A DNA stretch of 57,256 bases from a virus (IMGVR_UViG_3300025294_000007:1-57256); one strand, 5' to 3'. Positions 17,247-47,330 are shown, counted from the stretch's first letter. A program made the numbers and translations. Notes: generated by a model from the sequence alone, not told the origin.

Positions 17247-17439
17247 ATGCAATCGCCTCCCTAGCGCTAATTCCATTTACAAAGACATCAACATCGGCAA
17301 ATAATTCAATATTTCCGTTAACCTCTATATGTGCCAATAAATACCCTTCACGGTCTGTTATCGCAAAAATCACATCATTTTTGTTAATTAAGTCCTGTTT
17401 CGGAATGTACTTGATTCGTTTCATTCTACTTATCCCCAT
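17233..17439 (-). CDS. Hypothetical protein, 68 aa or less
   Basis: ORF with coding-like composition. The start is uncertain (17439 or 17424). Confidence 0.4.
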   Translation of the reverse strand: MGISRMKRIKYIPKQDLINKNDVIFAITDREGYLLAHIEVNGNIELFADVDVFVNGISAREAIAYDKQ

Positions 17440-17615
17440 TTCGTTAATTTAAAACATCTCAATTGCGGAACATACCCGTCACATGTGTTTACCGAGCGAA
17501 TAAAATAACCGAGCCTTTCACATCTTGTATTAGCGTGAGTTTGCTCGGCTTGTATCTTCCTATAATGTAAAGGTACAAAACGTTATAAAATATGGATTAT
17601 TTCTCTGATATAAAT

Positions 17616-17644
17616 AAAAAAAGCCACACCTTAATAGATGTGAC
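17616..17644 (-). terminator. Intrinsic terminator of cassette B
   Basis: Minus-strand RNA stem GUCACA/UGUGGC (one G.U pair, which would be a C.A mismatch on the plus strand) followed by U7. Confidence 0.6.
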
Positions 17645-17785
17645 TTCTTTGGCTATTTTGAAAGTTTATATAAGGCATATTAGTTAATCGAAACGCCTTC
17701 TTCCTCTGCCTGCTCTGATAGATATTATGCAAACTTTTCGGCAAGCGAACTACAAACTTTCCATAATGCCAAATTTGGGCGAGAC

Positions 17786-18019
17786 TTAATTGTTAGCTTT
17801 CTTATCCATGTCATTTTTACGCTTAACAATATCTTCTTTAAAGAACAGCCTATCTCTAGGTAAATCTTTAATTGGTATTATCACACCACGTTGCACTAAG
17901 TTATTCAGATTTTGACGTGAGCATTGCAGTATCTCCAACGCTTCAGTTGTATTAATTATTTCATCTTGTATATATTCCGTTAATTCTTCACGTGAGTTGA
18001 AAGAGTAGTTTTCAGTCAT
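17786..18019 (-). CDS. Small HTH DNA-binding protein (excisionase/MerR-like fold), 77 aa
   Basis: HTH: TTEALEILQCSRQNLNNLVQRGVIIPIK. It occupies the same position in cassette B as 16052..16252 does in cassette A. Confidence 0.6.
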   Translation of the reverse strand: MTENYSFNSREELTEYIQDEIINTTEALEILQCSRQNLNNLVQRGVIIPIKDLPRDRLFFKEDIVKRKNDMDKKANN

Positions 18020-18032
18020 TTATTTCCACCAC

Positions 18033-18119
18033 CTAGCGTTTATTTTTTCGCATTGTAATAATCGTTGCGCCAATCACTATCAATGTTATAACAGTTAATA
18101 TTAAGGTTACAATTGACAT
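18033..18119 (-). CDS. 28-aa single-TM peptide (MSIVTLILTVITLIVIGATIITMRKNKR)
   Basis: ATG 8 nt after GAGGTG. Below the ORF-track cutoff. Confidence 0.45.
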   Translation of the reverse strand: MSIVTLILTVITLIVIGATIITMRKNKR

Positions 18120-18191: not shown

Positions 18192-18266
18192 GAAGGCTAA
18201 GGGTGCGAGCCTTAACCTTCTTTTACTAGCTTGACGCTACTCCTCTGGAGTGGTGTCTTTTTTTTT
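18192..18266 (+). ncRNA. Predicted ~75-nt antisense RNA overlapping the 3' end of the 44-aa peptide gene
   Basis: Promoter TTGTAT-17-TATATT (18157..18185). 5' hairpin AAGGCT/AGCCTT (18193..18213). An 11-bp terminator stem at 18233..18257 has two G.U pairs that form only on the plus-strand RNA, and is followed by U9. Confidence 0.5.
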
Positions 18267-18371
18267 GTTTTCTTTACTTTTCTTGCTGTTCATCTTCGCT
18301 GTTTGGAAATTAATCATTGCGATTATCAAGTTGATGAACGCTGTTAGTGCAACTACTCTTTCAATGTCCAT
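18237..18371 (-). CDS. Small TM + Lys-rich peptide, 44 aa, paralogue of 15643..15801 (Hol-Tox/TxpA-like)
   Basis: ATG 6 nt after GGAGGTG. Sequence: MDIERVVALTAFINLIIAMINFQTAKMNSKKSKENKKKDTTPEE. It aligns without gaps to the cassette A peptide. Confidence 0.6.
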   Translation of the reverse strand: MDIERVVALTAFINLIIAMINFQTAKMNSKKSKENKKKDTTPEE

Positions 18372-43502: not shown

Positions 43503-43805
43503 TCATCTTTTATCGAGTAAATAATAGACGTTTGTTGTCTGTTTCCCTTGCCCAAAAACTCGTTTTTCTCTCCGAATATAGCCTACAGATTCTAGAGATT
43601 TTAACGCCCTAAATACACTATTACGACCAACACCAACTATTTCAGCAAGTTTCTGTGCGCTTGGGTATGCTTGTTTACTATTGTTGTCCGTAAATAGACT
43701 AAGCGCTATGTATACCATTTTATCTCGATGTGTTAACGATTTATCGAGTGCTAGTGATTGTGGTATCATAACGAATTTAGTTGTCTGATAATCGATTATT
43801 TGCAT
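43503..43805 (-). CDS. Winged-HTH DNA-binding protein (Rep-N / DnaD-like family), 100 aa
   Basis: FVMIPQSLALDKSLTHRDKMVYIALSLF...AYPSAQKLAEIVGVGRNSVFRALKSLESVGYI. Confidence 0.55.
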   Translation of the reverse strand: MQIIDYQTTKFVMIPQSLALDKSLTHRDKMVYIALSLFTDNNSKQAYPSAQKLAEIVGVGRNSVFRALKSLESVGYIRREKRVFGQGKQTTNVYYLLDKR

Positions 43806-43953: not shown

Positions 43954-44637
43954 ATGAACGAGAAGAAGCCGTGGTATACAAAAAAGAAGGTTTGGAAATG
44001 GATCGGTATAGTTTTCTTAGCATTGTTTATCATCGGTAAAGTTTCTGAGATTACAGGATATAGCGATAAGTTAGAGGCTCAAAAGGCGGAGGAAAAAGCT
44101 GAAGTTCAAGCTGAAAAGGATGCCAAACAGAAGAAAATAGAGGCTGAATTAGCTAAAGAAAAAGAGAAAGAGCAGGCTAAACAAAAGGCTGAAGCCGAGA
44201 AAAAGGCTGCTGAAGAAAAAGCAGAGAAAGAACGTCTTGCTAATCGAACAATTGACGAGAAAGTAAAAGACGCGGTTATTGCTGTTGTAGGAAAAGAAAA
44301 TTACCGAAGCCATAAATTTGAAGATAATACACTTTGGATACAAGTAACATTGCAAGATAATTTTACACAAAACATGATGCTTAAGGGTACTTATATGGAC
44401 ATGCTAGATATTGCTGAAAAAGTACGTGAAGAATCTTTACTCAATGGCGCAAATGATGTCGATGTGTCTTACTATACAGAACTAACAGATGCATACGGTA
44501 AAACATCAGATGGAGTAGTTGTTGAAATCGGCATGAATAAAGACACGCTTGATAAAATCAACTTTGAAAACGTATTACACAAAAATGTACCGACTATTGC
44601 GAATTACTATTGGGAGCACCCTTTGTTCAAGCAATAA
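43954..44637 (+). CDS. Membrane-anchored protein with a KAE-rich coiled coil, 227 aa (moron-like: plus strand with its own terminator)
   Basis: N-terminal TM WKWIGIVFLALFIIG, then a Lys/Glu/Ala repeat region and a globular C-terminus. Confidence 0.55.
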   Translation: MNEKKPWYTKKKVWKWIGIVFLALFIIGKVSEITGYSDKLEAQKAEEKAEVQAEKDAKQKKIEAELAKEKEKEQAKQKAEAEKKAAEEKAEKERLANRTIDEKVKDAVIAVVGKENYRSHKFEDNTLWIQVTLQDNFTQNMMLKGTYMDMLDIAEKVREESLLNGANDVDVSYYTELTDAYGKTSDGVVVEIGMNKDTLDKINFENVLHKNVPTIANYYWEHPLFKQ

Positions 44638-44688
44638 TTAAGAAATTGACGTTATATTGACAATACAATATATAGAGAATATGAACCA

Positions 44689-44713
44689 GGCGCCAATCAA
44701 GGCGTCTTTTTTT
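44689..44713 (+). terminator. Intrinsic terminator after 43954..44637
   Basis: GGCGCC-aatcaa-GGCGTC (one G.U pair) followed by T7. Confidence 0.55.
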
Positions 44714-44746
44714 ATTTTTAAAGCCCTAGTTCACTGATTTTTAAAT

Positions 44747-45541
44747 TTATCCTAAGAAACCATAATAATCATAACGAAGTTGTCTATTATAAATACCGCG
44801 AGTTGTCTTTTTTATTGCACTGTAAAGAACCGCAGGTAGTGACTTCACTTTTCCACGCTTAAATGCATTTATTACGCTCAAAATAGTTTCACGGAATGTA
44901 TCTTCGTGGTCCTCAATCTGAATATCACGATCAACAGATGCTTTTGCTTTATAAATTACACCAACCATTTCATACAATTCCTCTGCATCAAAGAAAGGAG
45001 CTAATACGTATTTTAATGTTTCTGGTAATTTACTTACTAGCCCATTTTTAATGAGCGCAGCGTTTTCTCCTGTATCATATGTATTATTTAAATCTTTTTT
45101 AGGAGTTTGATTAAGAGTATTAGTATGACACTCGGTATGACATTGCATATTATCCGACACGACTTCAATTACTTGTCCGAATGCTTCTCGCGCTGAAATT
45201 TGTGTTAAGAAAACAATCGCATTTGACGATTGGCGTTTATCACCGTTAGCACGATCCAATTGATATTGAGCGATAATTCCCATTGATCCTAACGTGTTGC
45301 AAATACGTACTACCTGGCGAGTACTTAATCCGACCATTTTTGCGATAGATGACTTCGCCAAATAACATACTCCGTAAAATTTAGATGCATAGCGATGTAA
45401 AACGTCTAGTACGTTAAGCATTGATGTCGTCATAAATTCTCCGAATTGCAGGCGGATTGCTTTTGTATTAGCGTTCAGTTGTTCGATAGATTCAAAAGGT
45501 TGTAACATTCTATAAGTTTTTTCTGTGTTTAACAGTTTCAT
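44747..45541 (-). CDS. Plasmid Rep-like winged-HTH protein, 264 aa
   Basis: Central wHTH SIAKMVGLSTRQVVRICNTLGSMGII. It is divergent from parMR and has a long structured leader. Confidence 0.45.
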   Translation of the reverse strand: MKLLNTEKTYRMLQPFESIEQLNANTKAIRLQFGEFMTTSMLNVLDVLHRYASKFYGVCYLAKSSIAKMVGLSTRQVVRICNTLGSMGIIAQYQLDRANGDKRQSSNAIVFLTQISAREAFGQVIEVVSDNMQCHTECHTNTLNQTPKKDLNNTYDTGENAALIKNGLVSKLPETLKYVLAPFFDAEELYEMVGVIYKAKASVDRDIQIEDHEDTFRETILSVINAFKRGKVKSLPAVLYSAIKKTTRGIYNRQLRYDYYGFLG

Positions 45542-45568
45542 TACAGTTTGCCTCCTATATGGAAACAG

Positions 45569-45614
45569 AAAAAAGCGTTACATCGCATAAATACTAGCGA
45601 CATAACGCTTTTTT
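45569..45614 (-). terminator. Terminator/attenuator hairpin in the leader of the Rep-like gene
   Basis: A6-GCGTTA...TAACGC-T6 with an inner TCGC/GCGA stem, about 20 nt upstream of the SD ATAGGAGG. Confidence 0.55.
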
Positions 45615-45616
45615 CG

Positions 45617-45645
45617 TTGACGAAACCGAATAAACAAGATATAAT
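45617..45645 (+). promoter_or_regulatory. Perfect sigma-A consensus promoter TTGACG-17-TATAAT pointing away from the Rep-like gene
   Basis: -35 at 45617..45622 and -10 at 45640..45645. The palindrome AAGATAT-N7-ATATCTT (45637..45657) overlaps the -10. Confidence 0.7.
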
Positions 45646-45651
45646 TAGCAT

Positions 45652-45757
45652 ATCTTATATATAACGATTAAGTCGGCAAGTGTTAGTCGCGAGTCTGGTT
45701 CGCGGTTGACGGTTATAAAGTGTTGGTAGCACTTTATAACAGCCGGCTTTTTCTTTT
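45652..45757 (+). ncRNA. Predicted ~105-nt non-coding RNA (candidate countertranscript to the Rep leader)
   Basis: It starts after the consensus promoter and has no SD or ORF. It contains the hairpin CGCGA/TCGCG and an 11-bp perfect stem GTTATAAAGTG/CACTTTATAAC (45712..45740), followed by AGCCGGC and T5CT5. Confidence 0.5.
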
Positions 45758-45834
45758 TCCGTGCGTTTATTTGTTACCACAACTTTACACTGTAAAAAAC
45801 GGAAATGCAAGAACAAACTTCATCTATTCCCTAC

Positions 45835-45869
45835 GCGCAACTCTAAAAAATGAGTTGCGCTATTTTTAT
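45835..45869 (+). terminator. Second plus-strand intrinsic terminator (GCGCAACTC / GAGTTGCGC + TATTTTTAT)
   Basis: 9-bp perfect stem at 45835..45843 and 45852..45860. Confidence 0.55.
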
Positions 45870-45881
45870 AAAATCATTAGA

Positions 45882-45966
45882 AATACGGTAAATCATACGT
45901 AATGAATTACGGTAATGAATATAGAAAGTATTGCATTACGGTAAATTCGTGATATAATTACGGTAT
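45882..45966. repeat. parC-like centromere iterons (A)TTACGGTA(A), four copies
   Basis: Copies at 45882..45891, 45906..45915, 45935..45944 and 45957..45966. They overlap the parM promoter. Confidence 0.65.
45931..45958 (+). promoter_or_regulatory. parMR promoter TTGCAT-16-TGaTATAAT
   Basis: -35 at 45931..45936 and extended -10 at 45950..45958. Iterons are interleaved with it. Confidence 0.65.
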
Positions 45967-45988
45967 AAAACAAATCGGAGGCGATTAA

Positions 45989-47065
45989 ATGCAATTGTTT
46001 GCGTTAGATTTAGGAAACCGTCAAGTAAAATTAATGAGTGAAAAAGCTACAAAAGTCCTACCTAGTTACTTTGTAAATGCTGCAGAATACGGGAAGCGTG
46101 ACGTGCTTGCGTTAGGTAAAAAAGAAAAGGAACAGACAACTAGCGATTATGTAACAGGTCGTGACGCAGATTTTACTTACGTTTGGGGAACGGGATTAGA
46201 TATTAACCGCAAACGTGTTACGGATACATTGGACTTCAATAGACGATATGATACGTTAGAATTTAAGGTGTTAGCAGATTTAGCACTTACTGAATTAGCG
46301 CGTGACTTTAAAGAATCTACAAAGAGCGCTATTGACGTGGCAGTTGTAACTGGTGTACCTACAGACGATTACGATAATGACGAGACAATTAAGCACATTA
46401 GAAACGCTTTAATCGGCGTACATAGCGCCTCGATTGACGGGGTAGATCATTATGTTCATGTACGTTCTGTAGACGTTCTTATGCAGCCAGTAGGCACAGC
46501 TATAGACGCAATGGTTGACGCACTTGGCAATATTAAAGAAGATAACGATATTGAGGACGGATATATTGGAGTAGTCGATGTCGGAGGTGGTACGGTTATC
46601 ATCAACGCTTTCGATAAGATGAATCTTGATACAAAGCACCGTGTACAAATGGAGGACGGATCATATTCATTATTCACAGAGATCCGCAATCGAATCATTG
46701 ATAAAGGCTACAAAATTTCTGAACACGAAGTTGAGCAAATTGTCCGTGATGGTAACGATAAGGAAGTATATACGTGGTCGCCAAACGGTCGTGAAACGCT
46801 TGATTTTACAGATATGGTTATGAAAGAGCGTAAATTATACACTCGTAACATTGCTCAATCTGTGAAATCAACGTTTAAAGCGATGTCTAGTATGCGTAAA
46901 ATATACGTAACTGGAGGTACTGCAAATCTTCTTATTAAAGATGAATTTACACGAGTAGTCAAAATTGCACATTTTGTAAACGACAGTGAAACGGCAAACG
47001 TGCGCGGGTATTATAAATACGGATTAATAAATGAGGTGACTGCTGTTGACGAAGCTACGAATTGA
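45989..47065 (+). CDS. Actin-like segregation ATPase (ParM/Alp family), 358 aa
   Basis: Phosphate-1 ALDLGNRQVK, phosphate-2 VVDVGGGTVII and adenosine motif YVTGGTANL. Confidence 0.8.
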   Translation: MQLFALDLGNRQVKLMSEKATKVLPSYFVNAAEYGKRDVLALGKKEKEQTTSDYVTGRDADFTYVWGTGLDINRKRVTDTLDFNRRYDTLEFKVLADLALTELARDFKESTKSAIDVAVVTGVPTDDYDNDETIKHIRNALIGVHSASIDGVDHYVHVRSVDVLMQPVGTAIDAMVDALGNIKEDNDIEDGYIGVVDVGGGTVIINAFDKMNLDTKHRVQMEDGSYSLFTEIRNRIIDKGYKISEHEVEQIVRDGNDKEVYTWSPNGRETLDFTDMVMKERKLYTRNIAQSVKSTFKAMSSMRKIYVTGGTANLLIKDEFTRVVKIAHFVNDSETANVRGYYKYGLINEVTAVDEATN

Positions 47066-47330
47066 GGTCGTACTAACGGAAGCAGATGCGGATATAATCG
47101 AATTTATACAAAGTAGTAGTGTGCCTCGCGCTACTCAATTTAAGCTGGCAATGCGCGAAAAGATGCAACGCCGTGAAGAGGAAAAGTTTGATACTAGAGT
47201 TAAACGATTGCTGGACGAAGTACTAGCGCAACGAGGCGTAAGTAATCCGGTAATTAATGAAGTGAAACCGTCAAAGAGACTTGGATTCGGCGGAAAAAGA
47301 CTTTATGACGATGAAGGCGACAGAAAATAA
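47046..47330 (+). CDS. ParR-like ribbon-helix-helix adaptor, 94 aa (TTG start behind GAGGTGA)
   Basis: N-terminal RIEVVLTEADADIIEFIQ beta-strand/helix pattern. Overlaps the parM stop. Confidence 0.55.
   Translation: MTKLRIEVVLTEADADIIEFIQSSSVPRATQFKLAMREKMQRREEEKFDTRVKRLLDEVLAQRGVSNPVINEVKPSKRLGFGGKRLYDDEGDRK

Follow-up and report, generated by a model that had tools for sequence, protein, structure and literature searches.

The 57,256-nt viral stretch IMGVR_UViG_3300025294_000007 (hereafter the window, meaning the whole stretch that was analysed) holds a tailed-phage genome, with genes for terminase, portal, major head protein, DNA polymerase, a DnaB-like helicase, primase and ribonucleotide reductase. 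The same genome also bears a plasmid-type maintenance block, in which a rep-like gene and a ParM-like gene are divergent, and the present work concerns the intergenic module in front of the rep-like gene, i.e., its long leader together with an RNA encoded on the opposite strand (Table 1). An initial annotation of the window had read this leader as a copy-control region of the antisense RNA and attenuation type, and all the elements listed there were confirmed in the sequence. We consider it probable that the module is a countertranscript-driven transcription attenuator, which limits synthesis of the replication initiator serving the plasmid mode of this phage-plasmid.

Table 1. Features of the rep-like gene, its leader and the adjoining region in the window.
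Feature	Position	Strand	Remarks
Rep-like gene, 264 aa	44747..45541	-	Regulated gene; N-terminal winged helix-turn-helix; HTH_36 and phrog_1835 matches
Shine-Dalgarno sequence of rep, GGAGG	45555..45551	-	Read from sequence
Attenuator, intrinsic terminator	45569..45614	-	A-run 45614..45609; 5' arm 45608..45597; 3' arm 45586..45575; U-run 45574..45569
Antisense promoter, TTGACG-17-TATAAT	45617..45645	+	TTGACG 45617-45622; TATAAT 45640-45645; 11 of 12 consensus positions
Leader spacer hairpin	45621..45675	-	Predicted fold; holds palindrome 45630-45642/45650-45662; enclosed by antiterminator helix
Preemptor, CGCGACUAACACU	45679..45691	-	Inside antisense target; can pair with terminator 5' arm (RNAfold with 3' arm absent or blocked)
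Antisense RNA, about 106 nt	45652..45758	+	Three-way junction; fold z -5 to -5.6
Antisense RNA, helix 1 (closing)	45670-45677/45742-45749	+	U-run 45748-45758 directly after
Antisense RNA, helix 2	45681-45693/45699-45711	+	
Antisense RNA, helix 3	45712-45724/45728-45740	+	
rep promoter, TTGCAT-17-TAAAGT	45782..45810	-	TTGCAT 45810..45805; TAAAGT 45787..45782; predicted start about 45775; leader 234 nt
Second plus-strand-only terminator, GCGCAACTC-N8-GAGTTGCGC then TATTTTTAT	45835-45868	+	Between rep promoter and parC-like repeats
ParM/Alp7A-like actin gene	45989-47065	+	Divergent from rep-like gene

Through a Rep search in IMG/VR, a ParM search and two DNA patterns, 12 close phage-plasmid loci were found, which share the same intergenic module. 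A covariance model of the antisense RNA (R1) was built from a MAFFT alignment of the 12 RNAs, a second model (R2) describes the attenuator, and with both models nine distant replicons were added, giving 21 loci. In the distant replicons the R1 matches lie antisense to rep, 70-140 nt upstream of the gene, with scores of 46 bits in phage BtCS33 and in B. wiedmannii p39783, 44-46 bits in two Priestia plasmids, 43 bits in pBM19 (E 1e-9, filters off), 41 bits in phage BMBtp1, 30 bits in pGS18, 24 bits in pA38H2 and 23 bits in phage Lietuvens.

The minus-strand promoter and the leader of about 235 nt proposed for the rep-like gene are present as described. The promoter agrees with the consensus at 7 of 12 positions, lies below the scan threshold and, alone, is no better than chance; its position, its hexamers (TTGCAT/TTGCAA and TAAAGT/TAAATT/TATACT, with TTGCAA-17-TATACT in L014) and the exact 17-nt gap are kept in the 12 close loci, while the spacer sequence varies. 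The gene is therefore preceded by a long untranslated leader from a far-upstream promoter, as is typical of countertranscript attenuation.

The plus-strand promoter that the initial annotation placed inside this leader scores higher than any other promoter match in the 4 kb scanned, and occurs at the same place and with 17-nt spacing in all 12 close loci, with varied hexamers and often an extended -10. The palindrome AAGATAT-N7-ATATCTT overlapping this -10 was also found as reported; among the relatives only the closest, L016, retains it, with a compensatory change. In the close loci, the antisense promoter is bordered by an inverted repeat. The product is a small non-coding RNA with a terminator of its own and no conserved open reading frame (ORF), the candidate frames being broken by indels. 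Its predicted length is close to the 105 nt first estimated, but the terminator assigned to 45712..45757 is not just the hairpin 45712-45740: helix 1 closes the junction and a U-run directly follows it, which identifies helix 1 as the terminator stem.

Conservation of the fold is strong and specific to one strand. In the MAFFT alignment of the 12 RNAs, which was not fitted to any structure, the three-way junction pairs in 93.8% of cells (27-51% in slid controls), and changes on both sides of a pair occupy 25 cells against 8.7 in shuffles (0/500). Moreover, four G·U or U·G pairs in helix 2 are nearly invariant; on the leader strand they would be A·C mismatches. In the 20-sequence alignment fitted to R1, 96.1% of cells pair, compared with 37-51% in slid controls; 24 of the 30 pairs, from all three helices, have changes on both sides, and two-sided-change cells number 110 versus 28 in shuffles (0/500). 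The R1 score of the window is 117.6 bits on the plus strand and 18.3 bits on the minus strand, and across the 12 close loci it ranges from 82 to 123 bits on the plus strand and from 16 to 25 bits on the other. An Rfam cmscan of 44000-47000 (4227 models, E up to 10) returned only four chance-level matches to eukaryotic snoRNAs and one unrelated small RNA (sRNA) model.

Among eight close relatives, the helix 2 stems are 95-100% identical, whereas the helix 2 loop (61%) and helix 3 (67%, minimum 45%) have diverged. To judge by these sequences, such a pattern fits a role of the helix 2 loop and helix 3 as recognition or specificity elements, with the 5' arm of helix 2 probably pinned by three partners. 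YUNR U-turn motifs occur in the two loops of the window and in some of the relatives only, and are not claimed as part of the module.

Upstream of the rep Shine-Dalgarno sequence (SD), the A6-stem-U6 hairpin of the initial annotation is present (folding energy -27.3 kcal/mol, z -7 to -8.3), although its U-run ends 13 nt before the SD and not 20 nt. In 21 of 21 loci the rep SD is preceded, at a distance of 10-25 nt, by a strong hairpin and its U-run, which usually continues with CGUUUCC, and in all of them this terminator stands between the antisense target and the ribosome-binding site (RBS). Across 11 close loci the attenuator pairs in 98% of cells, with one invariant G·U and three more wobble positions that are valid only on the leader strand. 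Furthermore, in the 12 close loci the U-run is invariant on the minus strand and is found on the plus strand only in the window and L016, which marks the hairpin as a minus-strand terminator. R2 gives 68 bits on the minus and 34 bits on the plus strand of the window, and 65-88 bits on the leader strand against 19-34 bits on the other strand overall. RNAalifold predicted nothing on a MAFFT alignment of 19 attenuators, an alignment that is not structural, and R2 with the close-clade alignment was used in its place. A further alignment, in which the two strands are mixed, was left out of all counts. A 36-aa ORF (45541-45651, minus strand) spans the attenuator, its stop overlapping the rep start (TAATG). 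It was ruled out as a conserved leader peptide, and probably is not one, since L016 lacks its ATG and the frame is disrupted by indels elsewhere among the relatives.

The element that connects the antisense RNA with the terminator is the preemptor, which lies in the antisense target and whose pairing is mutually exclusive with the terminator. It is the leader segment complementary to the junction and to the 5' arm of helix 2 of the antisense RNA and, when the 3' arm of the terminator was blocked, RNAfold paired the 5' arm with it around the spacer hairpin in 10 of the 12 close loci. At every locus the target region takes 57-95% (mean 75%) of the 5'-arm pairing probability in the nascent leader. 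The best duplex between 5' arm and target falls at homologous alignment columns in 13 of the 21 loci, and in distant lineages its z against shuffled arms is -2 to -3.4. When preemptors and arms were compared over 12 lineages, the mean duplex energy was -16.0 kcal/mol for cognate and -10.0 kcal/mol for non-cognate partners; none of 20000 permutations reached the cognate mean (p<5e-5), and the cognate partner was the best one for 9 of the 12 arms. The pairing changes in step between lineages, with preemptor and 5' arm reading GCGAC-UAAC / GUUA-u-GUCGC in the window, CACGACAAACA / UGUUUGUCGUG in pBM19, GGUAAACAC / GUGUUUACC in Priestia, GGCAAACAC / GUGUUUGCC in pGS18 and GACAG..GCCAC / GUGGU..CUGUC in Lietuvens.

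A separate observation concerns the ends of the two RNAs. The 3' tail of the antisense RNA (45742-45760, plus strand) and the attenuator tail (45586..45556, minus strand) are alike and change together across lineages, so that the leader begins with a segment complementary to the attenuator tail, which adjoins the SD. For leader 5' end and attenuator tail, cognate pairs reach -14.4 kcal/mol, versus -11.4 kcal/mol for non-cognate pairs (p 0.0003), and this pairing may be a second, translational switch.

Evidence that such RNAs are made comes from pBM19, a plasmid of Bacillus methanolicus MGA3. The differential RNA sequencing (dRNA-seq) of this strain (Irla et al., 2015; PMC4342826, Table S4) lists two pBM19 "sRNAs of unknown function", BMMGA3_s0150 at 18246-18342 (plus strand) and BMMGA3_s0160 at 18374-18286 (minus strand), and its authors give neither a function nor a link to replication. 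Mapped onto CP007741, s0150 begins exactly where the R1 match begins, 7 nt past the TATAAT of the homologous antisense promoter (TTGAAA-18-TATAAT), and s0160 begins 7 nt past TATACT, the -10 of the homologous rep promoter, with repB (17309-18109, minus strand) lying downstream. These starts lie where the promoters predict them, which shows that both promoters fire in the homologous replicon. The module there has the same attenuator, preemptor and promoter layout; its Rep is about 32% identical and the stretch read holds no parMR. As for its copy number, pBM19 is low-copy by one estimate, at 3.4 per chromosome (PMC5031790), and another paper gives 10-16.

In the mechanism that we propose, the rep promoter would start the 234-nt leader, while the strong promoter within it would make the structured antisense RNA in an amount following gene dosage. 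When antisense RNA is lacking, the preemptor would pair with the 5' arm of the terminator around the spacer hairpin, so that the terminator could not form and RNA polymerase would read into rep. Conversely, antisense RNA bound to the nascent leader, probably starting through the loops of helices 2 and 3, would sequester the preemptor, the terminator would form, and transcription would stop 13 nt before the SD. Since rep transcription crosses the antisense promoter, interference as in pIP501 is also possible (PMC4981023). We infer that the antisense RNA causes the termination, that Rep is rate-limiting, and that the circuit sets copy number.

Several points weigh against this proposal. The preemptor/5'-arm duplex of the window itself is modest (-10.9 to -13.3 kcal/mol) and, with z -0.8, no better than shuffled arms; in L011-type loci the 5' arm alone finds other partners, and the preemptor pairs only with the help of flanking bases. 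In thermodynamic terms, the terminator is always the preferred fold of the full-length leader (-76 versus -56 kcal/mol), so readthrough must be kinetic, as is likewise accepted for classical attenuation systems. In pBM19, s0160 is listed as 88 nt and not as the approximately 237 nt expected for a stop at the attenuator; its end falls in the leader loop just 5' of the preemptor, within the antisense-complementary region (CP007741 18286-18374; L146 1087-1175), and the 88-nt form may be due to processing of the duplex or be an artefact of the coverage threshold. Moreover, the 20-sequence alignment is biased toward structure by its fitting to R1, although the unfitted alignment of 12 RNAs agrees with it in direction. 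Finally, the initiator role of Rep is based on annotation and context only.

Part of this evidence would also suit a real antisense RNA acting post-transcriptionally, through cleavage or decay of the leader duplex or through a change in some long-range leader structure that controls access to the SD, with the hairpin as a constitutive, leaky terminator. In its favour are the pBM19 leader RNA, whose reported 3' end at nt 88 falls in the duplex region, the thermodynamic dominance of the terminator, the co-varying complementarity between the leader 5' end and the attenuator tail, and the UUUCC stretch widely conserved beside the SD. However, more than 95 nt separate the end of the antisense target from the SD downstream, and a model of decay or translation alone leaves the co-evolving complementarity of target and 5' arm without a role. 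We therefore regard post-transcriptional action as rather unlikely, and it could coexist with attenuation.

Two further explanations leave the antisense RNA without a part in rep control. The palindromes and repeats may act at the DNA level, as operators or origin elements for Rep or for a partition protein, the RNAs being by-products, and here one may recall that a palindrome overlaps the antisense -10 and is retained in L016, that the region lies between the rep and par modules and adjoins parC-like repeats, and that the origin of this replicon family is unmapped. Nevertheless, this palindrome is not kept beyond the nearest relative, and a DNA-level role does not account for G·U pairs that in each of the two RNAs hold on a single strand, covariation that preserves pairing and not sequence, strand-asymmetric model scores, U-runs kept on one strand only, or the start sites mapped in pBM19; taken together, they make such a role very improbable. 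Still less credible is simple insulation, in which the hairpin and the plus-strand terminators merely separate the divergent modules and the plus-strand RNA is non-regulatory or directed at parMR. The hairpin of the window is indeed bidirectional (A6/T6) and a second plus-strand terminator follows at 45835-45868, but the plus-strand U-run of the hairpin is limited to the window and L016 while that on the minus strand is universal, there is no space for a rep promoter downstream of the hairpin, and the module tracks rep and not parM, with no parM adjoining it in the parts of pBM19, pA38H2 and the Priestia plasmids that were read.

Attenuation of rep transcription by antisense RNA is well established in textbooks and has been described for a few plasmid families of Gram-positive bacteria. 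In pT181 of Staphylococcus aureus, the repC leader is reportedly controlled by the countertranscripts RNAI and RNAII. The order of target, countertranscript and attenuator, which the initial annotation had likened to pT181 and pIP501/pAMbeta1, is supported: the architecture is kept in 21 replicons of this Rep family, with the preemptor that defines this type of attenuation. Like pT181, the module shows promoter, countertranscript target, countertranscript promoter, terminator and RBS in the same order, and the target contains a preemptor as competitor for the proximal arm of the terminator; given the two successive plus-strand terminators, there may also be two countertranscript lengths, as in pT181. 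Unlike the rolling-circle initiator of pT181, the Rep found here is a winged helix-turn-helix protein of the HTH_36 type, presumably of theta-type plasmids and phage-plasmids, and the RNA is a three-way junction with its closing helix as terminator instead of a series of stem-loops. No Rfam family of plasmid countertranscripts matched in 44000-47000.

In the inc18 plasmids pIP501, pAMbeta1 and pSM19035, RNAIII induces attenuation of the repR mRNA (PMC4981023). The module resembles them in an antisense RNA of about 100-140 nt that would induce premature termination in a rep leader of 230-330 nt, in the convergent sense and antisense promoters, and in two loops as likely recognition elements. 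It differs in the RNA fold and in lacking the CopR-like repressor gene upstream of the rep promoter, where a terminator, parC-like repeats and a ParM-like gene are found instead; moreover, none of the 28 PLSDB records obtained with Rep is from inc18 hosts. The resemblance to pT181 and inc18 is thus one of mechanism and not of homology. Nor is the module of the translational type (pMV158 RNAII, R1 CopA), because 97 nt lie between the SD and the end of the antisense target at 45652. In the searchable literature, we came across no account of this RNA, nor any of how copy number is controlled in this replicon family; older subscription papers, e.g., on pTB19 RepB, were outside the search.

The 264-aa Rep-like protein has weak matches to replication-initiator PHROGs and Bac_RepA_C, and a Pfam search gave winged helix-turn-helix-type matches only. 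Homologues with 26-42% identity occur on small plasmids, including Sporosarcina pA38H2 (9.9 kb), Priestia plasmids (8.5-17 kb), B. methanolicus pBM19 and Geobacillus pGS18, and in phages and phage-plasmids, among them Lietuvens, BtCS33 and BMBtp1. In pA38H2 and pBM19 the homologue is the sole annotated initiator candidate in the stretches read, and that of pBM19 has been named repB, "a putative replication initiator" (bioRxiv 10.1101/2025.05.06.652373). In view of the small-plasmid homologues and this annotation, the label Rep-like is reasonable on annotation and context. Searches of PDB and NCBIfam with Rep were uninformative, with no characterised relative, and a search of the genome contig collection gave no relative.

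A tblastn search of PLSDB (72,556 plasmids) with Rep returned 28 records, all from Bacillaceae or Planococcaceae. The module is not universal in this Rep family, since R1 had no match in four homologues of the B. subtilis group (L147, L149, L150 and L151; phages and plasmids); in place of the antisense RNA, they have a short intergenic region with a divergent cro-like helix-turn-helix gene, and in these replicons the same Rep family seems to be controlled differently. Four loci (L009, which equals L006 4860-5813, L008, L022 and L025) carry the same leader/antisense cassette before a different gene of 317 aa, whose product is only 25% identical to the 264-aa Rep, over the N-terminal 130 residues; the antisense RNA of L022 is almost identical to that of the window. 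With one cassette before two Rep types, the control cassette seems to be exchanged as a unit, with a breakpoint at the SD. Megablast of the region against the phage and plasmid collections gave nothing. A metagenome pattern scan yielded 119 stretches, of which only L086 and L129 carry the RNA according to R1, the remainder being chance matches; likewise, the single match of a 20-base pattern in the genome contig collection, in a GC-rich metagenome-assembled genome, was rejected as chance.

With regard to the neighbouring genes, four to five ATTACGGTAA repeats (45880-45965) surround a TTGCAT-16-TGaTATAAT promoter in front of the ParM/Alp7A-like gene, and a 94-aa ParR-like ORF without Pfam match overlaps the 3' end of this gene (region 45989-47330). 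These features suggest a parC centromere, a promoter for parM and an adaptor of the ParR type. A ParM search of the phage collection gave no match. The stem of the terminator at 45835-45868 shows compensatory substitutions across related loci, and this terminator could end a longer form of the antisense RNA, comparable to the two pT181 countertranscripts, or insulate parMR. About 1 kb from the rep-like gene lies a second short HTH_36 protein (100 aa, 43503-43805, minus strand), which is similar to the DNA-binding domain found at the N-terminus of replication initiators of phages and plasmids (phrog_270, DnaD-like).

In brief, within a known control mechanism, this is a new, widespread and so far unannotated RNA family, whose fold and associated initiator differ from those described before, and which is present in plasmids and phage-plasmids of Bacillus, Priestia, Geobacillus and Sporosarcina. 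It is possible, though on balance doubtful, that the window represents the first recognised member of a large countertranscript/attenuator family for HTH_36-type rep genes on Bacillaceae and Planococcaceae plasmids, phage-plasmids and temperate phages, with a portable cassette, a specificity-setting helix 3 and helix 2 loop, and a second, translational pairing. If so, the cassette would be portable between two Rep types, with its breakpoint at the SD; helix 3 and the helix 2 loop, which diverge rapidly in RNAs that are nearly the same elsewhere, may set incompatibility, or specificity between a prophage and superinfecting phages; and the second co-varying pairing may add a translational layer to attenuation. 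The antisense RNA is a candidate for a new Rfam family, and the module offers a function for the two pBM19 sRNAs, pBM19 being the methylotrophy plasmid of an industrial strain and a replicon considered for vectors. For phage-plasmids, it provides a testable handle on the copy number of the prophage and on the exclusion of relatives.

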